A program made the translations under genes and the position numbers. Positions 1-48,019 of a stretch of 64,000 nt of DNA are shown one piece after another. This DNA is from Eledone cirrhosa (lineage: Eukaryota), in the NCBI GenBank assembly GCA_964016885.1, contig OZ024745.1:74772001-74836000 (forward strand), given 5' to 3'. The stretch's first letter is position 1. Each line of letters begins with the position of its first letter. The notes under the pieces are model-generated. The model was not told where the DNA came from and ran no database searches. It was given only the letters and a program-made list of their open reading frames with translations.

Positions 1-2
1 AA

Positions 3-1469
3 AGTACTTTAACAATACACAAACGGTTACACACAGGAGAAAGGCCCTACTACTGTGAAATATGTGGGAAATCTTATGTCTGTAACAAAAAGTTAACACA
101 ACACAAAAAAATCCACACTGGAGAAAACCTCCACCACTGTGAAATATGTGGGAAATCTTATGTTAATAATTCATATCTTGTTATCCACATTCGTAGTCAT
201 ACAGGAGAAAAACCTTATCATTGCGAAATATGTGGGAAATCTTTTGCTTGTAAGAGTAAGTTGACAGTGCACCAAAATATACATACTAGGGAAAAACTCT
301 TCCACTGTGAAATATGTGGAAAATCTTTTGTCACTGACGGTGCTTTAATATCACACAAAAGAACACACACTGGAGAAAAACTCTACCCCTGCAAAATGTG
401 TGGAAAATCTTTTGTTTCTAGCAGTAGTTTAACCACACATAAAAGAACACACACTGGAGAAAAACTCTACCATTGTGAAATATGTGGGAAATCATTTATC
501 TCTAGCACTGGCTTAACCTCACACAAAAGAACACACACTGGGGAAAAACTCTACCATTGTGAAATATGCGGGAAATCTTTCACTAGGAATTGTCATCTCA
601 CTGTCCACATACGTGGACATACCGGGGAAAAAGACTATCATTGTGAAATATGTGGTAAGTCTTTTATCACTAACAGTCATTTAAAAGTACACACAAACAT
701 ACACACTGGAGAAAGATTTTTTTGTGAAATATGTGGAAAATCTTTTTTTTATAACTCCAATTTAACCACACACAAAAGGATACACACTGGAGAAAAACCA
801 TTTCCCTGTGAAATGTGTGATAAATCTTTCAATGATAGTTCTCAGCTTAAAAGCCACAAAAGAATACACACTGAAGAAAAACCATACTGTGATATATGTG
901 GGAAATCCTTTGTTTATACTAGGAGTTTAACAAATCACAAAAAAACGCATACTGGAGAAAAATATTGCTGTGAAATATGTGGGAAATTCCTTGTTTCTTA
1001 CGATCACTTAGAAGCACACAAAAGAATACACACTGAAAAAAAAATTTGTGAGATATGTGGGAAATTTTTTGACTGTAACAGTCATTTAATAAAACACAAA
1101 CGAACACACACTGGAGAAAAACCATTTCACTGTGAAATATGTGGGACATCTTTCAGTCAAAGAGGTATGCTTAAAGTCCACAAACGAAGTCATACCGGAG
1201 AAAAACCGTATTGCTGTGAAATATGTGGAAAATCTTTTGTAACTAATAGTAATTTAACAACACACAATAAATTACACACTGGAGAAAAACCATATTGCTG
1301 TGGCATATGTGGAAAATCCTTTGTCACTAACAGTAGTTTAACCTCACACAAAAGAATTCACACTGGCGAAAAACTGTACCACTGTGAAATATGTGGGAAA
1401 TCTTTTGTCTTTAATAGTAGTTTAACTTCACACAAAAAAACACACACTGGAGAAAAACTGTATCACTAG
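3..1469 (+). CDS. Tandem C2H2 zinc-finger protein (ZNF-1), 5' end outside the window; about 17 complete fingers visible
   Basis: The frame of ORF 261..1469 is open back to position 3 ([21 protein letters not shown]...). It has repeated CxxC-x12-HxxxH units with TGEKP-type linkers and ends HTGEKLYH-TAG. Confidence 0.92.
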   Translation, partial: STLTIHKRLHTGERPYYCEICGKSYVCNKKLTQHKKIHTGENLHHCEICGKSYVNNSYLVIHIRSHTGEKPYHCEICGKSFACKSKLTVHQNIHTREKLFHCEICGKSFVTDGALISHKRTHTGEKLYPCKMCGKSFVSSSSLTTHKRTHTGEKLYHCEICGKSFISSTGLTSHKRTHTGEKLYHCEICGKSFTRNCHLTVHIRGHTGEKDYHCEICGKSFITNSHLKVHTNIHTGERFFCEICGKSFFYNSNLTTHKRIHTGEKPFPCEMCDKSFNDSSQLKSHKRIHTEEKPYCDICGKSFVYTRSLTNHKKTHTGEKYCCEICGKFLVSYDHLEAHKRIHTEKKICEICGKFFDCNSHLIKHKRTHTGEKPFHCEICGTSFSQRGMLKVHKRSHTGEKPYCCEICGKSFVTNSNLTTHNKLHTGEKPYCCGICGKSFVTNSSLTSHKRIHTGEKLYHCEICGKSFVFNSSLTSHKKTHTGEKLYH

Positions 1470-2560
<1,091 letters not shown>

Positions 2561-11328: not shown

Positions 11329-11502
<174 letters not shown>

Positions 11503-11617
11503 TCATGGAATTCTGAGTGAAAGATGTCCCACATATTTCACAATGATAGTCTTTCTTTCCAGTGAGTGCATGGATAGTAAAATGACAATTCTTAGAGAAA
11601 GATTTCTCACATATTCC

Positions 11618-13606
11618 CTAGTGATACAGTTTTTCTCCAGTGTGTGTTTTTTTGTGTGAAGTTAAACTACTGTTAAAGACAAAAGATTTTCCACATATTT
11701 CACAGTGGTACATTTTTTCTCCAGTGTGAATTCTTTTGTGTGAGGTTAAACTACTATTAGTGACAAAGGATTTTCCACATATTCCACAGTAGTACAGCTT
11801 TTCTCCAGTGTGTAATTTATTGTGTGTTTTTAAATTACTATTAGAGACAAAAGATTTTCCACATATTTCACAGCAATACGGTTTTTCTCCGGTATGACTT
11901 CGTTTGTGGACTTTAAGCATACCTCTTTGACTGAAAGATGTCCCACATATTTCACAGTGAAATGGTTTTTCTCCTGTGTGTGTTCTTTTGTGTTTTATTA
12001 AATGACTGTTACAGTCAAAAAATTTCCCACATATTTCACAAATTTTTTTTTCAGTGTGTATTCTTTTGTGTGCTTCTAAGTGATCATAAGAAACAAGGAA
12101 TTTCCCACATATTTCACAGCAATACTGTTTTTCTCCAGTGTGTGTTTTTTTGTGATTTGTTAAATTACTAGCATAAAGAAAGGACTTCCCACATATTTCA
12201 CAGTATGGTTTTTCCCCAGTGTGTATTCTTTTGTGGTTTTTAAGCTGAGAACTATCATTGAAAGATTTCTCGCACATTTCACAGGGAAACGGTTTTTTTC
12301 CAGTGTGTATCCTTTTGTGTAAGGTTAAATTAGAGTTATTGACAAAAGATTTTCCACATATTTCACAAAAAAATCTTTCTCCAGTGTGTATTCTTTTGTG
12401 TACTTTTAAGTAACTGTTAGTGATAAAGGACTTACCACATATTTCACAATGATAGTCTTTTTCCCCAGTGTGTCTACGCATATGGATACGACGACTATAA
12501 TTCTTAGTAAAAGATATTCCGCATAGCTCACAATGATATGGTTTTTCTCCAGTGTGTGTTCTTTTGTGTGAGTTTAAACTGCTGTTTGAGACAAAAGATT
12601 TTCCACATATTTCGCAATGGCAGAGCTTTTCTCTAGTGTGTGTTTTTTTGTGTGATATTAAACTATTGCCAGAGACAAAAGATTTTCCACATATTTCACA
12701 GTGGTTGAGTTTTTCTTCAGTGTGTGTTCTTTTGTGTGATATTAAACTATTGTTAGAGACAAAAGATTTTGCACATATTTCACAGTGATAGAGTTTTTCC
12801 CCAGTATGTATATTTTGGTGTACTGTCAACCCACCCTTACAAACAAAAGATTTCCCACATATTTCACAATGATAGGGTTTTTCTCCTGTATGACTGCGAA
12901 TGTGGATAACAAGATATGTGTTACTAACAAAAGATTTCCCACATATTTCACAGTGGTAGAGATTTTCTCCACTGTGAATTTTTTTATGTTCTTTTAACTT
13001 ATTTTTACAGACATAAGATTTCCCACATATTTTACAGAAGTAGGGCCTTTCTCCTGTGTGTAACCGTTTGTGTAATGTTAAACTACTTTTATAGACAAAA
13101 GATTTTCCACATATGTCACAATGATAGGGTCTTTCTCCAAGATGTATTCTTTTGTGTATTGTTAAAATGCGATTAGTGACAAAAGACTTCCCACACTGTT
13201 CACAGTGATAGGGTTTTTCTCCAGTGTGGCTGCGTATGTGAATTTTTAGTATGGAATTTCTAAGAAACGTTTTCCCACATATTTTACACTGCAGCAACTT
13301 TTTTACAGTGTGTATTCTGTTATGTGTTTTTAGTTGATTGTTATTGATAAATGACTTTCCACATTTTTTACAATGGTACAGCTTTTTCCTTGTGTGTATT
13401 CCTTTGTGTGTGATAACTTCATCTTGTGAAGAGAATGTTTTACTACAAATCTCACAGTGATATTCACTCATCTTTCTCTCTACTGATATTTGTTCCATAA
13501 ATGTTTCACTACACAAAGGTTTCTCATCATTGTATGTCTCTGTAACTGTATCTATATTGTTATAAACTGTTTCATTAGAATTGTCAAAGTGATTAGCTTC
13601 ATCCAT
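11618..13606 (-). CDS. Tandem C2H2 zinc-finger protein (ZNF-2), 22 fingers with an acidic N-terminal leader
   Basis: Within ORF 11618..13660. The first true ATG is at 13606 (MDEANHFDNSNETV...), the same start as the paralogs. Uninterrupted ORF of 662 codons. Confidence 0.93.
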   Translation of the reverse strand: MDEANHFDNSNETVYNNIDTVTETYNDEKPLCSETFMEQISVERKMSEYHCEICSKTFSSQDEVITHKGIHTRKKLYHCKKCGKSFINNNQLKTHNRIHTVKKLLQCKICGKTFLRNSILKIHIRSHTGEKPYHCEQCGKSFVTNRILTIHKRIHLGERPYHCDICGKSFVYKSSLTLHKRLHTGERPYFCKICGKSYVCKNKLKEHKKIHSGENLYHCEICGKSFVSNTYLVIHIRSHTGEKPYHCEICGKSFVCKGGLTVHQNIHTGEKLYHCEICAKSFVSNNSLISHKRTHTEEKLNHCEICGKSFVSGNSLISHKKTHTREKLCHCEICGKSFVSNSSLNSHKRTHTGEKPYHCELCGISFTKNYSRRIHMRRHTGEKDYHCEICGKSFITNSYLKVHKRIHTGERFFCEICGKSFVNNSNLTLHKRIHTGKKPFPCEMCEKSFNDSSQLKNHKRIHTGEKPYCEICGKSFLYASNLTNHKKTHTGEKQYCCEICGKFLVSYDHLEAHKRIHTEKKICEICGKFFDCNSHLIKHKRTHTGEKPFHCEICGTSFSQRGMLKVHKRSHTGEKPYCCEICGKSFVSNSNLKTHNKLHTGEKLYYCGICGKSFVTNSSLTSHKRIHTGEKMYHCEICGKSFVFNSSLTSHKKTHTGEKLYH

Positions 13607-13917
13607 ATTAATTACTGTGGATTTCTTTAAAGCTGGGAATTGTCTATGAGAATGAATCAATTATGGTTCTGATGGGACAGTTTACATTTGTGGAAATTAT
13701 CCAATGTGGATATTATTCCTTTTTACTACAATTTGTGGATGAGAGTCCTGTCTATATAACAGACATAATCTTGTTGACAAAATGACTTCTATTTCTGCCC
13801 TTGATTCAATGTAAGTTAAACACATATAGAAGTTTCATAAATGATTAGTAGCAGGCGTTCTGGTGCTATTGAAGGTCTTCAACGATAGTTGATGTAATGG
13901 AGGGATCAGTTACCAGA

Positions 13918-15425: not shown

Positions 15426-16614
15426 ATTTAGTAACAGTGGACATTTTACCCATGCAAGTCCTGTACAGACCATAGGACGAATACCTGCTGATAAATATAC
15501 TTCAGTCCCTTGCTAATGCAATATTTGCAAATATATAATTATACTTTCACCACATATGCGGCCTAGCTCCCCAACGAAATTTCGAACGCTTCAGACGGAA
15601 AAAATAGTGATTGGTCTGATATGTTAATTATACAAGCAGGCTACTCTGCTGTTCAAATAACTGGAACGCTCGTCGTTGGAACTGATGGATGTCTGACACA
15701 AACACACATATCATCATTGTCACTGTTTAACGTCTATTTTCCATGCTAGCATGGGTTAGATAAGTTAGATCAGGTGACCATGTCTTACTCATACAGAGCT
15801 GTTTCTGGCTTGGTTTCTATAATTGGATGTCCTTCCTGTGGGCATGGTGCGGTGGCCGAAGGCTGTGGAGTGCTTGACCGGAAGGGTGCTCCTGTTTTTT
15901 ATTACTTACCGCAGGACAAAATTAGGATATGGCGAGGTGATTACAAATGAGCGGAGAATAGATTAGAGCATTTACCGGTGCAGGCGATGTCGTCGCCTGG
16001 TTTCGAAAAGTCCGGCTAGTCGCAAGCTTACAAAAGATAGATGTGGTTGGCCTCATGGCACTGTACCTCGAAGGGGATGCGTTGGCACTCTTCCTAGAGA
16101 TGGATGAACACAGCCAAAGGGATGCGCAAAAGATTGAGAGGCGTATGATGGAAGCGTTCGCGGAAGGACCGTTAGCCGCTTTTGCTAAGCTGGCAAGGAT
16201 TAGATGGAACGGTGAACGCGTTGACATTTTCGCAGCAGAAATACGGCGATTGGCCATGTTGGCTGGATATCAGGTGGAATGCGAACGCACGGTGCGGTTG
16301 GCGTTCATAAATGGATTTCCAGACGACATAACGGTGAAACTGCAGCAAGTCCCCGGTTACAAGGAAATGGAGATGCGTTCACTGGTGGAGCAAGCTCGCA
16401 TCATAGCAGAAGATACCAACAAGAGTGTCGCGGCGATAGCAATGACAGAGGCCCAAGGCAGCTGGCAGCGAAATGGTGAAAAGGAGGCAACCACGGCACG
16501 TGGTCGCCCGCGAACGTGTAGAGGTCGTTGTTTTAGGTGCCAGGGCCTGTACATGGCGAGAGACTGTAGAGAGTCAAGGCCGCGACCAGGCCACATCGCT
16601 ACTAGCTGCGACCA

Positions 16615-16658
16615 GGGAAACGATCCAAGGGGAACTACTGCGCCAGTAGCTGCCCCTT
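16615..16658 (+). promoter_or_regulatory. -1 programmed ribosomal frameshift signal (gag-pol)
   Basis: G_GGA_AAC in the gag frame, a 5-nt spacer, then hairpin aaggggaactactg-cgc-cagtagctgcccctt. The pol frame is -1 relative to gag. Also present in copy 2 at 25301-25344 (-). Confidence 0.8.
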
Positions 16659-18514
16659 ACGAGTAGAGGCGCTGCCCGTGGTGAAAGTCTTCGGCGGAGG
16701 TCACGAGCCATTTACAGGGGTATGGACTGGCTGCGAAACGTTGGAGGGAGGAGATGCGCTGGGATTTAGGCTACGGCTAGACAGGACGGGCGTGTTAGTA
16801 TTCCAGATGGGAAATGAAGTTCCAGAACTGGGTCCAAGTATGAGTAGGCGGGAGCTTTTCTCGGCGTGTGGAAAGTTGGTGGGTGGCTCCGGACAGCATG
16901 CAGCTATGTCAAGAGATGAGTGGGCGGGGTGACTTGGAGTGACAGAGTGGGAGAGAGGACGGTGGCCATGATGCAGATCGTGGGGAGGGTGAAGGCCGAC
17001 GACCCAGTGCGGGGATGCTGGTATGTTCCCAAATCGCAGTACGGGACCATATGGTGCGATCCAGCAGCATAGCGCTAGGTTTCACGTTGGAGATAGGAGG
17101 TGTTGAGGTTGAGGATGCAGCCTGGCTTAGGAAGAAGGACGACTGCAACCACATCAATGTGGCCGAACTGGACGCGGTGTTGAGAGGGGTGAACCTCGCC
17201 CTGAAGTGGGAACTGCACACCATCGAGATTCGCACCGACTCGGCTACTGTACTCGGATGGGTGAGATCAGTGCTCACCAGTGAGAAGAGAGTACGAACGA
17301 GAGGGGCGGCGGAGATGCTGATAAAGGGCTACCTGGGAACTTTAGGAGAGCTGGCCACCGAGTTCGATCTGAGGCTGAGCGTAGTTTTCGTGCCCTCAGA
17401 GAAAAATAGGGCGGACGTCTTAACCAGGGTGAAGAAAGCCTGGATGGAAGCGCCGGCGGAGGTAGAAGAGGAGATAGCTACCGTGTGTCGGCTGACCGAG
17501 TCGGATCTGAAAGGGTTGCATGACATGCACCACATGGGAGTGGATAGGACTCTGTTCCTAGCCAGAAGAATCAACTCAAACGTTAGCAGACACAGTGTTC
17601 TAAGATTGGTTAGAGGCTGCGTCCGATGTCAGTCCATTGATCCCACCCTGAGTGTGCACGAAACGGGAAGCCTCCCGGTGGATTGCGACTGGAAGCGATT
17701 GGCAGTGGATTTAACACACTACCGACAAGGAACATACCTCTCAATGGTCGACTGTGGATCGGGACGGATGGCGATATGGAGGGAGATAAAGATTGGAACG
17801 GCCTAGGAAATCACGCGGACGTTGGGAGAGGTGTTCTTGGAGCGAGGCCCTGTGGACAAACTGCTGATGGACAACAGCGCAGCGTTCCGCTCAGAGGCGC
17901 TGAGGGAGATGCTCGATGGATGGAAGGTGGACCGTTTCTTCAAAGCAGCATACAGGCCGAGCAGAAATGGAATCGTGGAGCGACACCACCAGATGATCAA
18001 AGCAATGGCGGAGTGGAGCCATATCTCACCAATGGAGGCAGCGTTCTGGTTCAACATGTCTCCTCGGGTGGGACAGGTTGAGGTATCGGTGCCACACAGA
18101 GCAGTATTCAGATACGAGTGACAGCACCCATGCACGCCACCACAACAGCCAGTGGGGAGAGAGAATGCATTCGTGCAGGTGGGCGAAGAAGTCTGGGTTA
18201 AGCCCCCAGATGTACATTGCACATCTCAATGGGGAAGGGGAACAGTGACAGCCAAAAATTCCCAGAACAATGTGTCCGTGGACGTAGTACTACGTCATGT
18301 CCTGGATGTACGTAGATTTACCGTGTCAATGGACTCCGAGGAAGAGGAAACCCAAAGTGCCGCCCCAACACTGCAGAGATCGCAAAGAAGTCGCAAACCA
18401 CCAACTTGGACAGCAGACTTTCATATGCAGCAGGACGAGGGGGAAATTGATCCTTGAGATCAAGGGGAGGGGGGCATGTGGGTATGGTGTGGTGTGCGGT
18501 GGGCGGAGGCTGGG

Positions 18515-18594
18515 GAGTGCTCGACCGGAAGAGTGCTCGACCGGAAGGGTGCTCGACCGGAAGGGTGCTCGACCGGAAGGGTGCTCGACCGGAA
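18515..18594 (+). repeat. Five tandem 16-bp units g(a/g)gtgctcgaccggaa inside the LTR
   Basis: Read directly; variant copies also occur in the LTRs of copy 2. Confidence 0.9.
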
Positions 18595-19279
18595 GGGCCA
18601 GCAGGTCTGCCTCTCTCTAGCATGGTCAGCGAAGGTGGTGGACGTCAGTTTTGGAGCTCCCAGTTAACGAGTTGGATTGTACGCACATGGGAGAGGAGAA
18701 ACCAGCCATTGTATTACCGGTGCCAGCAATAAGCGGTAAGTGAAGTAGCTTTTTCTAACTGCACTTCCTAAAGTCAACTACATTACAGCGTGCACTGGAT
18801 GCTTTTTACTGTCGCACCAAAATGACCAACTGACAGGTTGAATTGGGTACTTTTTCATAGTTCAGCACGGCCACCTTAAAGGGTGGACAGGGTGCTTTTG
18901 CCATGTCACCACATGACCACCTTACAGGGTGGACAAGGGGCTTTAGTTGTGTCATCAGCATGATTTTCTTACACAGTGGACTGAGTGTATGTCCAGCTTT
19001 CCATGCTTTTATACATGGGTTGGACAGGAAAAGTCTATCAGGTGATGTGAAAAGTGGTGTGTGCATATAAGATAGTTATTGGAGAGGTAAGTCTAAGGTG
19101 GGATACTTAGCTGGTGAAAGGGGCAGTGTATGGACAGTTGAGAGGAGATTTGGTGCAGACTAGTGTCCTCTATATGTTTACTTCATCCTGTGCATCTGGG
19201 AAGCATGCAAGCTTCATTTTTTCCAAGGTTTTCATACAGCATTGCTGTTCATACACAAACATACAATCTGCCCTTCATT

Positions 19280-20150: not shown

Positions 20151-22080
20151 TCCTATGGCTTAGTTGTTAGAGCGTTTGGCTTCCAATCGTGAGGTTGTGA
20201 GTTCACTTCAGGCTGTACATTTTAATGTATTCATATTTATCTAAAAACCTTCCATCACAATTTTATGGAAGAAATATTATTAATGCTCCAAACACCACCT
20301 TAATAATGACAAAGATAGTCGTATTACTAAATCTCCCTAAATTCTTTGATATTTTCAAAAATTATTTTTAAAAAATAATTAAAAATTTTTTTATTTTTTT
20401 AAATTATTTTAAAATTATAGAAGAGCATTGGATTATATTTATAGAGAGACTTCACACTGAATCATTCTTCACATATTTATTTCACATTCATTTTTTCTTT
20501 TTGTACAGTGCCTATCCAATTCACAACTACATGTTTATTTATACTTCATAAATTATTTCCTAAATATTTTAGCATAAGAATTTCACTGAAATGACAGAAT
20601 ATCTGTAGACAAGATGAGAATTTGAAGAGAATCATTTTTTAAATGTTTCACCTAGATAAATGTTCTGTAAAGTGTGCCTGTTTCTAGAAAATAAATTTAG
20701 TTTTGCAAGCGAAAGATTTTGTACATTTTAGACAAAAGTTTTCTTTCCAGTGTGTATTCGTTTGTTTTATAGATAGGATGAGAAGTTAAATGTTACCTAT
20801 ATCTTTTTAAAATCTTCTAAGAATCTTGTTTTTACAAACGGTATAAGAGAAATACCTTAGTCGATGAGTTGGTCGCTTCTTATTGGTAGTAACATGCTTC
20901 TGACTTCCAGGATATAAATAAATATCTCTTTAACGCTCAATCCTCTATAAATATAATTTTTATTGTAGAAAGGAATGTAGGAGTCATTTTATAATTTTTC
21001 ACGCATTCGTAGTCATCTCCTGGTCTTCCGTGCACTATGGTTTTTCACCAGAGAGAGAGAGTGTGTGACCATATATTTATACGCGATTTACCATTGGTCA
21101 GTTTAACCTTATTGCATATGAAAATGTTGCTATTGCGAGGTATGACGTAGTTCCACTACAGTTTGTTCAAGTGACTGTTAGTAATAAATCATTTCCTACA
21201 AATTTCAGTGATAGGGTCTTTCTCCGGTGTGCAATCGATTGTGACGTTTTAAATCACTATTAATAACAAAAGATTTCTCACATATTTCACAAGAATATGG
21301 TTTTTCTCCAGTATGTCTACGGTTGTGGATTTTAAGCCGAGAATATTCAATGAAAGCTTTCGTACACATATTTCGCAGTGAAATCGGTTTTCTCCAGTGT
21401 GTTGTTAAATGACTATTAGAAACAAAAGATTTTCCACAAATTTCAGTGATATGGTTTTTCTCCAGTGTGTTTCTTTTGTGAACTATGAGACTAAAATTAA
21501 CTGAAAATGATTGTCCACATATTTCACAGTGGTAGGGTTTCTCTCCAGTGTGTACTCGTTTGTGGATTACATTTGAATTCTTAATGAAATATTTCCCACA
21601 TATTTCACAATTAAATAGTTTTTCTTCACAATGCTTTCTAATGTGAGTTGTTAAATTACTGCTAGAAACAATTTTCCACATATTTCACAGGAAAATGGTT
21701 TGTCTCCAGTGTGTGGATTATTAGACTAGAATTTTAAATGAAAGATGCCCCACATATTTCACAGTGAAACATGTTTTGTCCAGTGTGTATTCTTTTATGT
21801 GTGTTAAATTACTATTAGTGACAAAAGATTTCCTACATATTTCACAATGATAAGCTTTTTCTCCAGTGTGTATTTTTTTGTGTGTTGTTAAATTGCTGTC
21901 AGATACAAAAGATTTTCCACATATTTTGTAGGAATGTGGCTTTTCTCTTGTGGATTGTAAGCCTAGAATTTTTAATGTAAGATTTTGCACATATTTTACA
22001 GTGTAACAGTTTTTTTCCTGTGTGTATTTGCTATGTATTTTTAATTGACCATTATTGAGAAAGGATTTTCCACATATTTT

Positions 22081-25000
22081 TATAGCGTTTGTTTGTTGGT
22101 CATGGTGATTAGTTGATTGAGTTGTGGTGTTGACTCGTTTGTTGCGTGTGTGCTCACTTGTAGCTTGCTATGTCGTGTGGTCACTGTTGTGTGCTACAGT
22201 GTGACTAGAGGTTGCGTGTGTGCAGGTGAGTGAGTAAGTGTTCATTATGTGGTTAGAAAAAGCTATCTCACTTACCGCTTTTCATAGGCGCCGCTAAATC
22301 CCATGGCTGGTTTCTCCTCTTCCACGTGCGTCCAACTCATTAACACCCGGGAGCTGCCAAACTCGCGCGTCCACACCGTTCCTGGTTACCACTAGAGAGA
22401 GACCGATCTGCTGGCCCTTCCGGTCGGTCGAGCACCCTTCCGGCCAAGCACCCTTCCGGCCAAGCACCCTTCCAGTCAAGCACTCTTCCGGTCGAGCACT
22501 CCCCAGCTTCCAGCCACCGCACACCACACCATACCCCCCCCCCCCCTGATCTCAAGGATCAATTTCCCCCTCGTCCTTCTGCATATGAAAGTCTGCTGTC
22601 CAGGTTGGTGGTTTGCGACTTCTTTGCAATCTCCGCAGTGTTGGGGCGGCACTTTGGGTTTCCCCTTCCTCGGAGTCCGTTGACACAGTGATTCTACGGA
22701 CATCCAGGACATGACGTGGTACTCCATCCACAGACACATTGTTCTGGGAATTTACGGCCGTCACCGTTCCCCTTCCCCATTGAGATGTGAAACGTGCATC
22801 TGGGGACTTAACCCAGACTTCTTCGCCCACCTGCACGAATGCATTCTCTCTCCCCACTGGCTGTTGTGATGGCATGCACGGGTGCCGCCACTCGTATCTG
22901 AATACTGCTCTGTGTGGCACCAGAAACACTTCCTCCATTGGTGAGATATGGCCCGCTCCGCCATTGCCTCGATCGTCCGGTGGTGTCACTCCACAATTCC
23001 ATTTCCGCTCGGCCTGTGCGCTGCTCTGAAGAAACGGTCCACCTTCCATCCATCGAGCATCTCCCTCAGCGCCTCTGAGCGGAACGCTGCACTGTTGTCC
23101 ATCAGCAGTTTGTCCACAGGGCCCCGCTCCAAGAAAACCTCTCTCAACGTCCGCATGATTTCCTCGGCCGTTCCAGTCTTCATCTCCCTCCATATCGCCA
23201 TCCGTCCTGCTCCACAGTCGACCATCGAGAGGTACGTTCCCTGTCGGTAGTGCGTTACATCCACCGCCAATCGCTTCCAGTCGCGATCCACCGGAAGGCT
23301 TCTCGTTTCGTGCACACCCGGGGTGGGATCAATGGACTGACATCGGACGCAGCCTCTAACCAATCTTAGAACACTGCATCTACTAACGTCCAAGTCGATT
23401 CTCCTGGTTAGGAACAGGGTCCTATCCACTCCCATGTGGTGCATGTCATACAACCCTTTCACATCCGACTCAGTCAGCCGACACATGGCAGCTATCTCCT
23501 CTTCTACCTCCACCGGCGCTTCCATCCAGGCTTTCTTCACCCTGGTTAAGACGTCCGCCCTATTTTTCTCTGAGGGCACGAAAACTACGCTCAGCCTCAG
23601 GTCGAACTCGGTGGCCAGCTCTCCTAAAGTTCTCAGGTAGCCCTTTATCAGCATCTCCGCCGCCCCTCTCGTTCGCACTCTCTTCTCATTGGTGAGCACT
23701 GATCTCACCCATCCGAGTACAGTAGCCGAGTCATTGCGCATCTCGATGGTGCGCAGTCACCACCTCAGGGCGAGGTTCACCCCTCTCAACACCGCGTCCA
23801 GTTCGGCCACATTGATGTGGTTGGAGTCGTCCTTCTTCCTAAGCCAGGCTGCATCCTCAACCTCAACACCTCCTATCTCCAACGTGACACCAAGCGCTAT
23901 GCTGCTGGCATCGCTCCATACGGTTCCGCTCTGCGATTTAGGAATATACCAGCATCCCCGCACTGGGTCATCGGCCTTCACTCTCTCCACAATCTCCTGC
24001 ATCATGGCCACTGTCCTCTCTCCCACTCTGTCACTCCAAATCACCCCTCCCACTCATCTCTTGACATAGCTGCATGCCGTCCGGAGCCACCCAGCAATCG
24101 GGTAGTGACCCACCAACTTTCCACACACCGAGAAAAGCTCCCGCCTACTCATACTTGGGCCCAGTTCTGGAACTTCATTTCCTCTCTGGAATACCAAGAC
24201 GCCCGTCCTGTCTCACCGTAGCCTAAGTCCCAGCGCGTCTCCTCCCTCCAACGCTTCTGACGGCTTCGCAGCCAGTCCATACCCCTGTAAATGGCTCGTG
24301 ACCTCTGCCACCGACACTACAGACTCGTCCACTAGGATGTCGTCAATGTAGTAATTAGTGGCCCCCTTCATCTTGTCGGCCTTTCCCAGAATGGTCTTGA
24401 GGACTGCCGCCATGATCTTCGGTGTGGAGCTCAGCCCGAAACCGAGCCTGGTCAGGCAATATGTCCGGCCCTTATACCTGACCAGCTGATACTGCCAGAG
24501 CTTCTCATCTATATGCAATTGCAAGTATGCCGACTTTAGATCTACGATTGCGGAACCCCCCGTCATGCGTCTCCACTCTACGCAGGGTTTCCCCCACAGA
24601 CATCCGTGACCTCGCCACCCGTGTGGCATGACACGTGCTCGTTCAGCTGCCGAAAGTCCAGTACCGGCCTCACCTTGTTCTTTGTGGGTTGCGCCACCGC
24701 CATTAACGGCAATACTCCGCACTTCACCTCCTCTTTCCAAGGAAGCAGTATGCCCTCCTCAATCCATCTCTCTACCTCTCGCTCGAATTCCTTCAATGTG
24801 TTGATAGCAGCCCACTTTGGTCTTCAGTGTTGGTGGTTTTCCCTTCCAGTACTACTCAACAACCAATCGCTGCCCATCGAACACAGCCTTGAAGTCTTTG
24901 TCCTGCACAGTGTAAGCGGGGTATTTCTCCTCGTGGGCCTTCTGGTTCTCCTGTCGTGTACTCACAGCACATACCGATGCAGCACCGCCAAACGACACAC

Positions 25001-26966
25001 CAACGTTGTTCACTGTGATGCCTCCTAGACGGCCAATTGCGTCCATGCCCATAACCACGCCGATCCCATCCACCACGTTGTCAACTACGATGGCAGAAAG
25101 CCTTATTTTCCTTCCCCGTACCGCCATCTCCACCTCGTTGCGACCTCGGCATTCAATTTTCCTGCCGTCGACTGCCCTTACGCTGCTCTTCCCTCTCCAC
25201 CTCTGTGGTCACCAGTGTCATCCTACAGCCCGTGTCCACGAGGGCTCGCTGTGGCTTTCCCCTCACGAAGACTTCCACCACGGGCAGCACCTCTACTCGT
25301 AAGGGGCAACTACTGGCGCAGTAGTTCCTCTTGGATCGTTTCCCTGGTCGCAGTTAGTAGTGATGTGGCCTGGTTGCTTACACCGGTAGCATATTATTTC
25401 CAGCCTTGACTCTCTACAGTCTCTCGCCATGTGCAGGCCCTGGCACCTAAAACAGCGACCTCTAAACGTTCGCGGGCGACCGCGTGCCGTGGTTGCCTCC
25501 CTTTCACCATTTCACTGCCAGCTGTCTTGAGCCTCTGTAGTTGCTATCGCCGCGACACTCTTCTTGGCATCTTCTGCTATGATACAGGCTTGCTCCACCA
25601 GTGAACGCATCTACATTTCTTTGTAACCCGGGACTTGCTGCAGTTTCACCGTTATGTTGTCTGGAAATCCATTTATGAACGCCAACCGCACCGTGTGTTC
25701 GCATTCCACCTGATTTCCAGCCAACATGGCCAATCGGTGTATTTCCGCTGCGAAAATGTCAACGCATTCACCGTTCCATCTAATTCATGCCAGCTTAGCA
25801 AAAGCGGCTAACGGTCCCTCCGCGAATGCTTCCATCATGCGCCTCTCAATCTTTTGCGCATCCCTTTGGCTGTGTTCATCCAACTCAAGGAAGAGTACCA
25901 ATGCGTCCCCCTCGAGGTACAGTGCCATGAGGCCAGCCACATCTATCTTCTGTAAGCTTGCGACCAGCCGGACTTTTCGCAGCCAAGCGACATCGCCTTC
26001 ACCGGTAAATGCCCTAATCGCTTCGCTCGTTCGTAGTCTCGTCGCCATATCCTAATTTGTCTTGCGGTATGTGATAAAAAAAACAAAACAACAGACTCCT
26101 CTCTGTTTTTCCAGTAGCTTTGTTTTCGAGAAAGGTTTTTTTTTTTTTTTTTTTCCAATCAGATCTCAGTTTCCAGTGCCGAAATAGCTTGTGGTTAGAA
26201 AAAGTTATCTCACTTACCGCTTTTCATAGGCGCCGCTAAATCCCATAGCTGGTTTCTCCTCTTCCATGTGCGTCCAACTCATTAACACCCGGGAGCTGCC
26301 GAACTCGCGTCCACACCGTTCCTTGTCACCACTAGAGAGAGTCCGATCTGCTGGCCCTTCCGGTCGAGCACCCTTCTGGCCAAGCACTCTTCCGATCGAG
26401 CACTCCCCAGCTTCCGGCCACCGCACACCACACCATACCCACACATTAAGATGATGGTGATATGATAGTTCCTTGATCAAGCACAACATGATTGTATATA
26501 AATGAACCACGGTAACACCAAACCGCTATATTATTAATTTATTGATTATAACTCACGCTGAAGCTATACGAAAAATACACAATAATTATGTACGTCATTT
26601 GTTTGTTTGTAAAAGTAGTTAAAGTCGTATTTACCAAGAAAACTTTGTGAACGTCACTGGCTTGGTTAAGAGAGAGACCAAGAGATAGAGATTGAGTGAA
26701 AGAGAGAAAGAGAAAGAGTCACTGAGATCCAAAGGTTCTATGGAAAGCAATAGTTTATATGCTTACTCTATCAAGAATTGCCTCGAACTGCTGCCAGCCT
26801 GATCTAAGGCAGACTATTTATCTCTGTCACTTCCTATGTCCCCAAGCCTTGAGAAGAAAGAGGTAACCTCTAGAGGTCGTCCAGTCTCAGACTTGTTGAC
26901 GCCCAAAAGGAGATAACCCGAAAAATGACCGTTAAATGTCACCCAGGGGTCAAAGTGAAGACAACA
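22081..26966 (-). mobile_element. Probable solo LTR (~685 bp: 22081-22247 plus 26449-26966) inserted in ZNF-3 and itself interrupted
   Basis: 4-bp TSD TTTT at 22077-22080 and 26967-26970. Minus-strand ends are TGTTGT...GCTATA, with AATAAA on the minus strand near 26540. Confidence 0.65.
22248..26443 (-). mobile_element. LTR retrotransposon copy 2, full-length but mutated (gag-PR-RT-RH-IN)
   Basis: LTRs at 26190..26443 and 22248..~22538; 5-bp TSD CATTA at 22243-22247 and 26444-26448. gag from 26048, protease LVDTGC ~25230, RT VLDFRQLN / DLKSAYLQ / GFGL / YIDD, RNase H SDAS..HINVAEL..NRADVLTR, integrase HHCC and D..D..E. Confidence 0.95.
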
Positions 26967-31049: not shown

Positions 31050-34000
31050 ATAAATATGTATATTTCTTTATTTACCATAAAGGCATAAAAAGAAGGGACA
31101 AATACAAAGGGGGAGTTTACATAAAACCGAGTAAAAAGGGTATAAAATGAAAATAATCAAAAACAACCTCAAAAGGGAGGGGACGTGATGGGGGTTGCAC
31201 ACACCCCCGAAAAAGTGTGCAATCCTTTGCCCGGGGAGCACATGGAGGAGGTGCTCCCCTCTCCTTCACTTCTTTACCTACAGGATGGTATACAGAGAAG
31301 GCCCATTTACACGAGCCATTCTCGCCACTATCACCCACCTTTCATAAAACTGCCTGTGGCCAAGCACCTCTCTCTCCATTCTTATCCTTCTTCCGAAGTG
31401 ATATCGGAAGAAGTAGACCAGACTATGGCCAGAGAGGAAGTTGCCTGACCTCAGACCTTTCAATCGTGTCCACCAAACCTCTTTCAACATGGCTATTATG
31501 CACAGAAAAACCGCCTTTGCTTCCTTTGTGAAGAGGGGAGGCGGCTTGATTGTCATCACGGACTCGGCGGTCAATCGAATCGGCGCCACCTGCGACAGCA
31601 GTTGTTCGGCGTAGCCCCACAGATCAGCCACGCCCGGACATTGCACCAATGCGTGCGCAACGGTTTCTTCGTGATGCACGCATCTAGGGCAAATCTTTTT
31701 CGAGGGATCCCTGCCCGGGCGCCCGTGTCTGTAGAGCTTTTCTCGAACGGGTAGAGCCCCCCGGTAGCACTGCCAGGCCAGTGACTTCTGGAAGTTGTCC
31801 ATTGGTCCCGGGCCGAAAGTCCTACCGAACAGGCTGGCCAGTTCGTCCTCTTCCATGTCCAGCGACTCTCCAAGGGTGTCATCGCCCCTGCTAGCAACCA
31901 GCCCTCTATAGAATGACGAGGTGGATTTTCCACCGATGGCCGGGTCCACTTGCCAGAGCCCTGAGCGCCTGGGCACACTCAGTGTGCCAGTTGCCCAGTT
32001 TTCCGGATCTTTGCTTGACCCAGGCCTGCAGCTCGGTGAGCGAGACGAGTCTCAGAAAGGCTCGTCTCACAAACGGAGCCCACACCGGTTGACCAGTGAG
32101 GAATACCTGTAGGTGCCGTAGCCTTAATGCGTGCCTACGCATCATCAACCACGGCATCCCCAGCCCAGCCCTCCTTTCGAAGGTTGTTGGCAACAGATGG
32201 ATCTTCTCACCATAGGAGGACGCTTTTTCCAAAGAAATTGAAAGAGCATGCGTTCCATGGTGGTGAGGGTTTCCTTAGGGCAAGGCACAACAGTCAGGCG
32301 GTAGTAGGTGACGGACGCTATGTAAATGTTCGCCACCTCCGCCCGACCTTTCAGAGACAGCTTACACTTGGCCCATTTCTGGGTCAGTGCAAACGCCTTG
32401 CTCGTAACCTCGCCCCAGTTCTTTTCCACCTGGAGGTCCGGTCCAAACCAGACCCCAAGCAACTTCACCGGGCCCTCCGTCCAGTGTCCGACGACACCGT
32501 CGGGAGGCATCGGTCTGCCTCTCCACGTTCCGAGTTGCAGCCCGATGGATTTTTCCCGGTTCAGTTTCGCTCCTGACAACCTTTCGTATTCCTCCAGTAA
32601 GGTGCCGATCGCCTCGATCTCTGAGTCGGTCGATACCATTACTGTTACGTCATCGGCGTAGGCCGACACTGCTTTGCTCAATCCTGGTTCCAGGGGGATA
32701 CCCTGCAACAACTCCAACTTCCTCAGTAAAGGCTCGAGAGTCAATACGTACAGAAGGGAGGAGAGAGGGCACCCCTGTCGAATGGATCGTGTGATTTCAA
32801 ACGGCTTCGAAAGGTAGCCGTTTACCTTGATCCTAGAACAGATGTGGTTGCTATGTAAGGCAGTGATCCAGCCTCTGAAAACAGGGCCGAACCCAGCCGC
32901 CGCTAGCACCGCATCCAGGTAACCATGGTCGACCCTATCGAACGCCTTAGACTGATCCAAGTTGATCAGGGCCCCACCGAAGCCGGGTTTGTTGCCAACC
33001 CTCTCTATGATGTATCGCATGAGGTGGAGGTTGTCGTGAATGGACCTGGATGGGATAGCACATGTCTGCGCATCTCCCACCAGGCTACCCACGACAAGCG
33101 CCAACCTCTTTGCTAACACCTTGGCCAAAATCTTTAACTCTGTGTTTAGCAGGGTTATGGTCCGAAAATTATTTATACTATCCCCCTTGTTCTCGTCCTT
33201 CCTCACCAGCGAGACTACGCCCTTGGCTACAGAACAAGGAATTCTCCAGTTCTGCTGCCAATTGCAGTAGACTGCTTCGAGGAGTTCGGAGAAGAAGACC
33301 GGCATTGCCAAATAAAGTTCGTAAGGTATACCATCGAGACCTGGAGATTTGCGTTTGCTGCATTGGCTCAGCGCATCCCCGATCTCATCAGACGAGATTG
33401 GTCCCTCGCAGGATTCTGCCTCTTCGCTCGAGAGACACGGCAGGCCGTCGAGGTATGGACCGAAATCCACGTCCCCGCCCGGACCCCCGCCTCCCCCGAA
33501 CAATCGGACAAAGTGCCTTTGAAAGGCCTCGCACATCTGCTTAGGCTCCCGGATCACCCGTCCATCCTCGTCTTGCAAAGACCGGATGGTGAATCGATTT
33601 CCACTCTTAGCTTCTGTCACGCGGGCCCAGCCAACGGCTTTGGCCCCCTCATTACCTAGAGCACGTATTTTACTTCGAATGACGCAGCCTTCGTACTTTG
33701 CATCGAAAAACTGGCTCAAGGCCGTCCTCGATGCCAGCACTCTGGCCACATCTTCTTATTTACCTGTTAATTCTTTCTCGTTCCTATTCCTATCGGCAGC
33801 TAACATCTTGCTATAACTTATTGATTCTGTTCTAATCTCTCTTTTGAGAGATGCCCACCATCGGTTGTTGACGATTGCACCCGTCAACCTCTCCTTAACT
33901 AATCTGCTAATTCGGTCTCTGTAAGCCTCTTTTGCCTGTAAAGACAAATTAAGTTTCCAGTAACCGGGACCCTGTCTATGTGTTCTCTCAAGGTTGACTA

Positions 34001-36850
34001 CGCAGGTCACTAATTTGTGATCTGTATAGCCAACCGTGAGCATTTCTGGACAGCTTAATATGTCCCTATCCTTACTTCTAACTAAGAATCTATCTAAGTA
34101 CGATCTAAATTGACCACTGTGGTTCGTCCAAGTCCAGGTTGGCACAGTTGGAAAATCTAGTCGATATCTATCGACCAAGTTAAAACGGTCGAGTAACCCC
34201 CTGAGGCTGTTACACCCCCCTCTATTAGGACATGCTCCTGCATAGTCCCAACGTGCATCTAGGATGTCATTCCAGTCCCCCGCTAGAAGCAGGGAACGCG
34301 ACGTTCCCAGAAAAGTCTCCAGACGCTGGAAGAAGTCGGGTCATTCAGCTCCGAAAGGGGAGTAGACGGCGACCAGTCTCAAGGCCGCACCTCCACTACT
34401 GCCAACGTCTAGCACCAACAAACGACCTTCCCGGTCCGAGTGAACAACCTGTACGGCGAGACCCAGGTGTTTTTCCAGCAGTACGACAACCCCACCCCCA
34501 CCTCCAGGTTGACAGAGAGGTGCGTGCACCTCAAAGTCATCGAAGGTAGGGGCCAGCTGCCGCACGACGCTGATCCGAGTCTCACAGATAACCATTACAT
34601 TTATACCACGTGACCTGAGGTCATTTAGAAGCTTTGCTTGCTTCCAAGTTGAGCCCAGGCCACGTGCATTCAAACATCCTACTCTTAACACATCCATGTG
34701 GGCGGCAAAGCCAAAGGAGAGTGTAGAGACTTACCTTTCTGCTTCCCGGGGTTCGGGTCGCACGACTTCCATGGGGTCGGGGGTGTTGGGTGAAGGGGTG
34801 TCTTGTGGTGGTGTGGGGTCGTCAGTGTGTGGTGGGGTTGGGATGTTTGGAGTTGTGTTGGGGAGGCGAAGGGGAGGGGGAAAGCTTTTTAGGAGGACGC
34901 GGTTTATGGGTTTGACAGAGGGTGGTCCTACGTCCTCCTTAAAATCCTTTTTTTAGTTTTTGGTAGAGGTTGATTGGGATCTTTATTAATTTTAAATGTG
35001 GGTAGTTTTCTGAAGAAACAAAGTTTACCCCTTCGGTTTGTACCGAAGGGTTATTGTTTACGAGTTCATTTAATTTATTATTGTTTCTGTTGATGTAAGT
35101 ATAGTGTAATGTCTTTTTTTCGGATGGTGTGAGTGTTTCGAAGTGGGGAGGGGCAGGTTTGGTTTTGTTTGTTGCTGGGGGGGTGTTTTGTGTTTTGTTG
35201 GATTGTGTTGACATTTGGGTAGGGGCTGTTTGGCCTTGTGTGTTTTGCACATGTTTTCTTTATTTCCTTTTAATCTGTCTGAAGGACTCCGTTTCTTCCT
35301 CCGAATTTGTTGGGTTATCTTCAGTGTTGGAGGGTAATGTTTGCTGGTAATGTTTCCGTGTTGGTTTTCTTTGTGGGGGAGATGGATGTCACTATGTTAG
35401 ACTGTGTTGTGTGTTGTGGCTGCGGTGGTTGTGTTGTTTTATTGAGTGAGGGATTGGGTGGGACTGTGTTTTGTTTTTGGGTAATGTGTCGTGTCTGTTT
35501 GTGCTATGGTGGTGGTGTAGTTTTACTGAGGGACGGGTTGGGTGGGACAGAGTTTTGTTGTTTGTTTATCTGTTGTGGTGGTGGTGGAGCTGGTGTTGGT
35601 AGCAGGGTTTTCTTCTTGTTGAGTTGTGGACAAGCCACCTTCAGGTGCCCTCTGCCTGCACAGATATGACAGGACGGCCTTCTCCCCTCCACGCTAATGT
35701 TTATATACCCGTGGCCCTCTAATAGGATTCTGTCGGGTATTTGGGCAATGCGTTCAGGCTTCATTTGCACTACAAGTTCTATACCTGTTCGACTGAACGC
35801 ATTGCCTGTGGTTTTCCCAATGGAAATCACGTTGTCATTCGCTGGATCAATGAAGCCAGCTATGAGCCAGCAGTAGTCCACATCTGGCATCATCGCATCC
35901 AGCCATATGCGCTGAGTTCTTTTACCCATATAAGATGGATAAAAGGTAAAATTTGTCGAACGAATCGGCGACAAAGCATATTTTTTTGCCGCTGATTCGT
36001 TCTTAATAATAATGGCTAGGCTTCCATACAGCCTGTCTCTTCTTATGAAAGTGGCTTCATTAAGTACTGCTTTAATTTCTGCTTGTGTTGGTTGTTGAGG
36101 TTTTTTTGAGATGTTGATGGTGCGGAAAACGACCGTCCGACTTTCAATATCTTTGGTGAGTTCTTGGGGCATTTTTACCGATAAGGTTCCATTTTCCCCT
36201 TGAGTTATGTATTGTTTGGCGTTTTTCATTCTTTGTGCCACATCTGAAATATTTTCAGGTATATATGTTAAAGATTTCTTTGTTGTTTGTGCAAATGAGA
36301 TATTATTGGTGTTGACTTTGTTGTCTGTTTTGCTTTCTGTTATGATGTTGTTTTCAAATGTTATTTTTGTGTTTGTTGTTTCTTTGTTTGTGGTATTAAT
36401 ATTGTCATGCAATTCTTTCAAATGTTTTTTTGTTGTTGGAATCAATCTCCAGATTTGTGTTTTCGTCATTTTTCTCCACACATTCGTCTGTTTTTATTTT
36501 ATTTTTTCTTTCCTTCTCTATGACGTTAGTTGGGAAGGAAGGGGGGGGGGGACTAAAGCGTGCGAGCTTACAACTCTTACCGCTGTAACCCCACCACTAT
36601 TTTCGTTAGCTTCGTTTAACATTTCTGCCAGACGATTGAAATTTTATGCCACAAAATTTTTAAAAACAGGTTTTTCACCCCTGGGAGGGGCGAAGATGAG
36701 CTGACCCACCGCCTGACAATTCAGACGGGGGGTCAAGCTACACAATAGTATCAAAATTAAAATTAAACTTACAAAATTTCCGCAATAAATTATAACAAAA
36801 CTTCTGCGCGAAGTGAATTACGTCTACGCTGTCGAACAGACGACAGCTAG
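31050..36850 (-). mobile_element. Near full-length Tx1/L1-clade LINE with disabled ORFs (ends approximate)
   Basis: ORF1 35504..36481 has a CCHC knuckle (CHICAGRGHLKVAC). ORF2 starts at 34697 with APE endonuclease (CLNARGL, SYLDRFL, TDH), then RT (SPGLDG, DQSKAFD, RQGCPLS, YADD) and C-terminal CPRC..HALVQC. A few stops and frameshifts break it. Confidence 0.92.
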
Positions 36851-45357: not shown

Positions 45358-45489
45358 AATGGTCTTTAATGTGTAAACTTAGATATTCAAGAGAATGGTT
45401 TCTCACATTTCAGTTAAAAGGCTTTGCTAACATGTGTATATTTGTGTCTTTTTAAGAGACTGTTAGTGATAAATGATTTCCCACATATA

Positions 45490-47490
45490 TCACAGTAATA
45501 AGGTTTTTTCTCCAGTATGTATTCTCCCGTGTCTGTTTAAATCACTATTATTGACAAAAGATTTCCCACATATTTCACAGTGATATGGTTTTTCTCCAGT
45601 GTGTCTACGTTTGTGAACTAGAAGACTAGAACTAACAGAGAATGATCTAGCACATATTTCACATTGGTAAGGTTTCTCTCCAGTATGTGATCGCATGTGG
45701 ATTGTAAGGTGAGAATTTTCAATAAAAGATTTTCCACAAATCTCACAGTGAAATGGGTTTTCTCCAGAGTGTATTCGTTTATGAACTATAAGACTAGAAT
45801 TAACAGAAAATGATTTTCCACATATTTCACAGTGATAGGGTTTCTCTCCAGTGTGTGCTCGTTTGTGAATAACAACATTTGAATGTTTAATGAAAGATTT
45901 CCCACATATTTCACAGTGGTAAGGTTTTTCTCCAGTGTGTATTCTATTGTGTATTATTAAGTTACTGTTAGACACAAAAGATTTTCCACATATATCACAG
46001 TGAAATGGTTTTTCTCCAGTGTGGCTCCGTATGTGGATTGTAAGTCTAGAATTTTCAATAAAAGATTTTCCACATATTTTACAGTGAAATATGTTTTGTC
46101 CAGTGTGTATTCTTTTATGTGTTGTTAAATTACTGTTAGAGACAAATGATTTCCCACATATTTTGCAATGATAAGCTTTTTCTCCAGTGTGTATTTTTTT
46201 GTGCCTCCTTAAATTACTGCTATAGACAAAATATTTTCCACATAATTCACAGTGGTAGGGTTTTTCTCCAGTATGACTACGTTTGTGTGCTTTTAAATTA
46301 CAGTTGGAGACAAAAGATTTTCCACATATTTCACAACGATATGCTTTTTCACCAGTGTGTATTCTTTTGTGTGTTCTTAAGTGATCGTGAGAGGTAAAAG
46401 ATTTTCCACATATTTCACAGTGAAATGGTCTTTCTCCAGTATGTATTCTTTTGTGTGTTGTTAAATTACCGTTTGTGGCAAAGGATTTCCCACATATTTC
46501 ACAGTGATATGGTCTTTCTCCAGTGTGTACTCTGCTATGTGTTTTCAAGAGATCATTAGATACAAACGATTTGTCACATATTTCGCACTGATATGGTTTT
46601 TCACCTGTGTGTATTCTTTTATGGATTATAAGCTTAGAATTTCTAATAAAAGATTTCCCACATATTTCACAGAGAAATGGGATTTCTCCAATGTGTATTC
46701 TATTATGTATTTTCAAGAGATCGTTAGATACAAAAGAATTCTCACATATTTTACAGTGATATGGTTTTTCTCCTGTGTGTAATCTTTTGTGGATTGTAAA
46801 CTTGGAATGTTTAAAGAAATATTTCCCACATAATTCACAGTGAAACAGGTTTTTAGGGTGTATTCTATTATGTGTTTTCAAAAGACTATTAGTAGTAAAA
46901 GATTTACCGCACACTTCACAATTATAGTTTTTTTTTCCAGTATGTTTAAGTATATGGACACCAAGATGTGAATTATTAATGAAAGATTTCCCACATATTT
47001 CACAGCTGAAAGGCTTTTCTCCAGTGTGTATTATTTTGTGAACTGTTAAATTACTGTTAGAGACAAAAGATTTCCCACATATTTTACAGTGAAACGGTTT
47101 TTCTCCGGTGTGACTACGTTTATGGATAACTAGACGCGAATCTTTCGTGAAAGATTTCCCACATATCTGACACTGAAACACGTTTTTTCCAGTGTGCGTT
47201 CTTCTGTGTGCTGTCAAAATACTTTTAAAGACAAAATATTTTCCACATATTTTACAATGGTACAACTTTTCCCTTATGTGTATTTCTTTGTGTGCGATAA
47301 CTTCATATTCTGAAGAGAATGATTTACTACAAATCTCACAGCGATATTCATTCATCTTTCTCTCTACTGATATTTGTTCTGTAAATGTTTCATTACATAA
47401 AGGTTTCTCGTCATTGTATGTCTCTGTAACTGAATCTATATTGTTATAAACTGTTTCATTAAAATGGTCAAAGTGATTAACTTCATCCAT
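45490..47490 (-). CDS. Tandem C2H2 zinc-finger protein (ZNF-4), 22 fingers with an acidic N-terminal leader
   Basis: 666-aa uninterrupted ORF starting MDEVNHFD. It terminates by a frameshift in a linker (HTGEKTLLL*), with a relic finger beyond. Confidence 0.93.
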
Positions 47491-48019
47491 AGTAATTACT
47501 GAGGATTTCTTAAAGGCTTGGAATTATCTATAAGAACGAATCTATTATGATTCTGTTTTTTTTTTTTTTTGTCTTGGATATCATGGGACTCTGTTTACAC
47601 GTGTGGATATTTTACTTACTTCCTACAACAATGTTTGTTGATGACCTGATCCTGTCCAAGTGATATACATATTAATGTACAAAAATAGACTTCTATTTCT
47701 ACTTTATGAAATGTGGATACCGTTGAAAAATGTATTCAGCTGACCACGTTCCGAAGTAAATAAAAAAGAATGTTAATGTAAAATGAGAAACCAAAAACTG
47801 AAAGAATTAAAACGAAAAGGGGAAACAAGTAAAATTTTAAAACCTGAAACGTAAAACCGAAACGATGAATGTACTTTCTGTTGATGCGGTCTTACATACA
47901 GTACTTAGTTGGTGTATACACGATGCTGAATACGTGCACATATGTTTGTATGGGTGTATCTATGTATAAATGTGTCCGATCTTAAGAAATCTAGAGTCAC
48001 AGACGAACCGAATAGGCCT

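Follow-up and report, generated by a model that had tools for sequence, protein, structure and literature searches.

A divergent LTR retrotransposon lineage carries a putative primer-binding site complementary to the 5' end of a tRNA

The window (the whole 64-kb stretch of DNA that was analysed) contains two copies of one LTR retrotransposon family. C2H2 zinc-finger repeat clusters with an 84-nt period, partly broken and with a large inverted duplication, lie at 1-2170 (plus strand) and at 11355-13660, 21160-22080 and 45440-47520 (minus strand). On the minus strand, 31278-34340 holds a broken non-LTR retrotransposon, whose domains are endonuclease, RT and zf-RVT, and an ORF upstream of it (35504-36493) has no Pfam match. 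The two LTR retrotransposon copies are made up as follows:

15837..18763, plus strand: copy 1, same family, TSD CTTCC; the 12-mer, most of the 5' LTR and part of pol are deleted
22243..22247, minus strand: TSD TAATG, 3' side of copy 2
22248..22536, minus strand: 3' LTR of copy 2
about 22261-22270, minus strand: intact counterpart, in the 3' LTR of copy 2, of the U5 stretch at 26203..26212
22534..22553, minus strand: polypurine tract (PPT) running into the 3' LTR, limits approximate
22552..25292, minus strand: pol remnants (protease, RT, DUF7047, RNase H, integrase) with stops, frameshifts and one deletion
25293..26048, minus strand: gag, interrupted by stops in copy 2; CCHC zinc knuckle in relatives
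26049..26177, minus strand: leader with an A-run and a T-run; subfamilies diverge from the first base past the 12-mer
26178..26189, minus strand: putative primer-binding site (PBS), 12 nt, abutting the LTR end and exactly complementary to nt 1-12 of host tRNA-Phe(GAA)
26190..26443, minus strand: 5' LTR of copy 2, 254 bp, TG..CA
26203..26212, minus strand: U5 stretch that is a partial complement of the 12-mer in family A; mutated here and not conserved across families
26444..26448, minus strand: TSD TAATG, 5' side of copy 2

Copy 2 has the make-up of an LTR retrotransposon, with direct LTRs, TG..CA ends, a 5-bp TSD, gag together with protease, RT, RNase H and a DDE integrase, and a G-rich PPT ahead of the 3' LTR. 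On the minus strand, the 3' edge of its 5' LTR reads ...AACCACA and is followed immediately, with a spacer of 0 and no TGG start, by AGCTATTTCGGC, a 12-mer that occurs once in the 64-kb window. The boundary is secure because the 3' LTR terminates at the identical base, TAATG is found on both sides, and a PPT and remnants of gag, RT, an RNase H-like domain and integrase lie between, which bears out the first-pass annotation in placing the 12-mer directly past the 5' LTR. That annotation had also pointed to a possible hairpin partner, GAGATAGCT, near the LTR end. This partner is intact only in the 3' LTR of copy 2; the 5' LTR reads GAGATAACT in its place and pairs just 4 nt with the 12-mer. Of 114 distinct junctions, from families whose U5 otherwise differs, 94 have a splice-donor-like GGTARG at 25-29 nt ahead of the LTR end (window 26213-26218, minus strand). 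An mRNA spliced from this donor to the leader may lack the primer site; alternatively, bound U1 may protect the 5' LTR.

In the host genome (3.0 Gb), a 19-nt pattern of the tRNA-Phe 5' end gave 234 matches and a reversed control 0. ARAGORN called tRNA-Phe(GAA) at 10/10 fetched loci, and nt 1-12 of these genes are the exact complement of the 12-mer. The identification as the first 12 nt of tRNA-Phe(GAA) is thereby confirmed on the host's own genes, and a different start of the host tRNA-Phe is excluded. With the number of tRNA 5' ends assumed to be about 60, a given 12-mer would be complementary to one of them by chance with a probability of about 4e-6. Host tRNAs were seen in part, through an Rfam tRNA search that gave 16 loci, and against this partial set the match lies at tRNA-Phe nt 1-12 and not in the anticodon arm, where a half-tRNA PBS of the copia/Ty5 type would have it. 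Pairing with a pre-tRNA leader was ruled out, as the flanks of the tRNA-Phe genes are not complementary to the bases beyond the 12-mer; a sense TTTCGGC match to the tRNA 3' strand merely reflects the acceptor-stem complement; and a C9-to-A variant of the PBS that mirrors a variant tRNA-Phe gene is no more frequent than other transversions. The host genome also holds a tandem array of tRNA-Phe and tRNA-Asn at G000:C4, about 117.36-117.56 Mb and beyond (L034-L040), with a unit of about 1.26 kb and at least 97 copies.

More than 1000 candidate copies of the family are present in the host genome. A search with the junction sequence returned 1224 candidates, and 30/30 fetched loci had the site or a one-base variant; as this sample is biased, copies were resampled by gag alone, in four protein searches with 30 loci fetched of 150 scored in each, giving 120 loci, 108 of them distinct. 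The 12-mer was found with at most two mismatches in 99/108 gag-picked copies (73 exact, 19 with one mismatch, 7 with two), a figure that measures stability and not independent events or origins, since these copies are kin and mostly family A. It stood directly after CA in 91 of the 99, and in the remaining 9/108 it had three or more mismatches or was gone, through deletions or decay. Among 2160 shuffled control regions, 26 reached two mismatches and 0 did better. The conservation at the LTR junction that the first reading called for is therefore present, and an ordinary TGG-type PBS, which would have spoken against it, was not seen: TGG lies within 8 nt of 0/114 exact junctions (which for exact 12-mers holds by construction), and no TGG downstream is conserved. 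Over the 12 columns the commonest letter has a frequency of 0.92-1.00, and over the next three 0.60, 0.42 and 0.49, a drop that arises because subfamilies continue with different bases (ACTGG, GACTG, GTTTA or ATCTG). The conserved block thus stops exactly opposite tRNA nt 1. Substitutions within it are mostly C-to-T or G-to-A, as expected of decay after insertion.

At least four host families (A-D) share the 12-mer, with gag 34-89% identical to the window copy and with differing LTR ends, U5 and leaders. A junction pattern that left out the usual family-A context gave 92 hits in the host genome compared with 3 in the control, and although C was allowed at PBS positions 7-8, TT was found in 92/92 of these hits. 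Clade gag lay just downstream in 26/30 that were fetched; both LTRs were visible in 11/20 longer stretches, 9/11 of them ending at the base that adjoins the 12-mer, and a 5-bp TSD was visible in 4/11. Family C, sampled by gag, retains the site. In a search with the LTR of the old family D alone, CA plus the 12-mer within 2 edits followed 11/12 LTRs with downstream coding sequence (one being the query), the twelfth having it within 4 edits, and 0/18 solo or 3' LTRs had the 12-mer within 3 edits. Diverged gag queries in the host genome mostly recovered the same large family.

Relatives elsewhere keep the site as well, as the first-pass reading had asked to be checked: a 12-nt site is present in 3/3 outside loci with a recovered 5' junction (L101, L198 and L200), and these 12-mers differ from the host version only opposite tRNA acceptor positions 4-6. 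L101, whose gag is about 55% and pol 53% identical to the window copy, reads ...TACTACA and then AGCTATCCCGGC. L198 (pol 37-39%) reads ...TACTAAA and then AGCTATCCGGGC. The degenerate copy L200 reads ...GCTTACA and then AGCTATCACGGC, its LTR edge being inferred from CA alone. Within one study, contigs of runs X1-X3 contain the L198 site, and a branch in the run X4 assembly at base 371, immediately before the 12-mer, sends one contig into the element and the other into unrelated sequence. The LTR end is thereby fixed at that base. This LTR (100-371) starts with TG and ends in AA, not CA, in the majority of contigs. The runs that contain L198 are marine or algal metagenomes, with no RNA run among those listed. 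L198, L199 and L362 (G001) and L200 (G002) are eukaryote-type retrotransposon contigs within bacterial MAGs, probably through binning contamination; the 5' junction is missing from L199 and L362. A match was lacking in 84 of the 85 genomes around G001, and neither the scans of viral contigs nor a first scan of genome contigs found relatives.

Human tRNA-Lys3, in the sequence given in PMC8715211, begins with the 12 nt that are complementary to the L198 12-mer. The complement of L101 opens ARAGORN-called tRNAs at 14/57 listed viral-collection loci and that of L200 at 4/23, the called tRNAs being Thr, Ile, Phe, Arg and Leu; at 62/80 of these loci no tRNA was called at the motif, and the search pattern presupposed the next three tRNA bases. 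Going by these calls, made on viral-collection tRNAs, a tRNA can begin with the L101 or the L200 complement. In the host genome, the 1 match to those variant starts is not a tRNA-like gene, which agrees with its families carrying only the Phe version. The feature is apparently wider than first supposed, being lineage-wide and not limited to tRNA-Phe.

The relatives have the domain order protease-RT-DUF7047-RNase H-integrase, which includes the RT-RNase H-integrase order of Ty3/Gypsy (Metaviridae). In three relatives, Pfam matched DUF7047 and RVT_3/RNase_H, while RT_RNaseH (Gypsy) and Peptidase_A17 (BEL) were absent in 3/3. Judged by these domain matches, the clade is atypical of both Gypsy and BEL. 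Among 8000 scored sequences, 983 were relatives at E<=0.001, the named hits being molluscs and crustaceans (Argonauta, Aplysia, Petrolisthes, Oratosquilla), and a cluster look-up of 10 relatives gave no names. The listed PDB matches of the clade enzymes are Ddi1 or, at low identity, retroviral enzymes, and the Atlas neighbours of the RT-RNase H are unnamed Euglenozoa clusters. An alignment-based fold (pLDDT 84) matched retroviral RTs at 13-14% identity, which does not place the clade; a single-sequence fold reached pLDDT 33. The RNase H motifs may resemble those of DIRS. The clade may be an unnamed LTR lineage that combines a DIRS-like RT/RNase H with a DDE integrase and has a highly divergent pol (window copy; P0024, P0020, P0081).

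In LTR elements the 3' end of the primer must lie at the LTR edge. We hold it to be probable, from the sequences compared here, that a 5' piece of a tRNA serves as the primer for minus-strand synthesis. Element RNA would invade the acceptor stem and the first D-stem strand of the tRNA, likely within the particle, and pair at the LTR edge. A cut would be required, since the pairing stops at U12, where an intact tRNA has no 3'-OH; cleavage near the duplex end, after U12, would likely free one. Alternatively, if AG is a 2-nt spacer, the cut would fall after G10 and the primer would be 10 nt long. The gap between PPT and LTR has two or three non-purine bases in several families, which hints at integrase-trimmed ends and bears on such a spacer; 2-LTR-circle junctions, which would give the spacer length, numbered 0 in the host genome. 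The most likely single cutter would be the element's own RNase H, carrying out the Tf1 reaction in trans on a host tRNA, and we weigh this evenly against a host nuclease or a ready-made fragment. tRNA fragments are usually reported at 16-35 nt (PMC7515703), longer than the 12 nt proposed here, which weighs against the proposal.

Several other explanations were weighed. The 12-mer could pair with the element's own RNA, in Tf1-like self-priming or in the U5-leader hairpin that the first-pass annotation had offered, the tRNA match then being incidental. In family A, U5 indeed forms 10 contiguous pairs with the site, 8 of them Watson-Crick, with 7 in family B and 8 in one D copy, so that the hairpin stands for families A and B and partly for D. 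It fails for family C (4-6 contiguous pairs) and for L101, L198 and L200 (6, 5 and 6), which have no LTR complement. Ungapped, the 12-mer complement matches each of 9 LTRs with 4-6 mismatches at best, and a Tf1-type near-complement of the PBS inside the LTR was not found, partial ones occurring only in families A, B and D. Even in family A the 12-mer stays constant across copies whose U5 partner differs, the terminal GGC of the site is left unexplained by the hairpin, and locally the sequences fold no better than their shuffled versions (z 0.15 to 1.59). The predicted duplex energy is -20.4 kcal/mol with the tRNA, compared with -11.6 to -19.3 for the best site in the 300 nt upstream. On the LTRs compared, self-priming cannot explain the lineage as a whole because several lineages have no LTR complement to start from, and we regard this explanation as highly improbable.

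A tRNA 5' end might also bind without acting as a primer in the manner proposed, with an intact tRNA docking for packaging or dimerisation, or with another priming chemistry such as a 2'-OH branch or a 3' end that pairs elsewhere. Contacts of the tRNA 5' side are known as auxiliary in Ty1 and Ty3, which lends this some plausibility. Yet in every family with a fixed boundary the last pair coincides with the LTR edge, where the primer 3' end must lie, and the lack of TGG at the exact junctions (by construction) and of any conserved TGG downstream also speaks against docking, which we consider improbable. The primer could instead be some other small RNA of the host whose end coincides with the 12-mer complement. 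This has a very slight probability, as conservation stops at tRNA nt 1 and the pattern of a tRNA 5' end is preserved in the variants of L101, L198 and L200 alike.

Priming from a tRNA 5' piece, as favoured here, resembles and differs from known systems in several respects. Tf1/sushi, Tj1 and Tcn1 prime from an RNA 5' terminus of about 11 nt, which pairs at the LTR edge and is released by RNase H (PMC7175516, PMC4600332), in Tf1 as an 11-nt primer cut off at the end of the RNA duplex (PMC7175516), and the same is proposed here. Their RNA is the element's own transcript with a complement in the LTR, whereas in the clade it would be a tRNA 5' end, and an LTR complement is absent in several lineages. 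Like Drosophila copia, yeast Ty5, plant Osser/Bryco/Bianca and fungal Copia and Helenus, the clade would use a 3'-truncated tRNA and not its CCA end (PMC10886601, PMC6317226). In those half-tRNA elements, described from Copia-type lineages only, the PBS matches the anticodon arm (PMC10886601, PMC6317226). The PBS of the clade instead matches nt 1-12 of a tRNA that would be cut in its D-stem, and the clade has its domains in the order RT-RNase H-integrase. With canonical Ty3/Gypsy, BEL/Pao and retroviruses the clade shares LTR-PBS-gag-pol-PPT-LTR, a 5-bp TSD and protease-RT-RNase H-integrase, but it lacks the TGG of their PBS, which pairs with the tRNA 3' CCA. Fungal GalEa, with a conserved hairpin site, bivalve biv-TRIM and Cryptococcus Tcn2-5 are likewise LTR elements without a canonical PBS; unlike in the clade, a match to a tRNA 5' end is not reported in the portions of their descriptions that were available.

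The priming modes listed for LTR elements in the available text of PMC10886601, PMC6317226 and PMC7175516 are the tRNA 3' end, an anticodon-cut tRNA half and self-priming. A PBS complementary to a tRNA 5' end, or a retrotransposon with these 12-mers, was not found in the accessible portions of the open full-text literature (as distinct from Repbase and subscription journals), among them PMC3587641, PMC3286476, PMC4402516, PMC6238403, PMC6934838, PMC5445492 and PMC8556966. A prior description somewhere is rather unlikely, if by no means negligible, and members of the clade may sit in the supplements of mollusc, annelid or errantivirus surveys.

The full picture would be that of a deep, unnamed, compact LTR lineage, widespread in invertebrates, that uses a fourth priming mode: its RNA opens the acceptor stem, its own RNase H cuts the D-stem, a 10-12-nt 5' piece primes, and the tRNA type switches between lineages (Phe, Lys, others). 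Taken with all its parts, this picture has in our judgement an even chance of being right. If true, a 5'-terminal tRNA primer would bridge tRNA priming and the self-priming of Tf1. PBS finders may test only tRNA 3' ends, as in the methods of PMC13524379; such tools would score these elements as lacking a PBS, and the mode may thus be hidden in many genomes. Very short 5' tRNA fragments would also acquire a definite function, and an RT whose RNase H is unusual is predicted to be able to cut tRNA.
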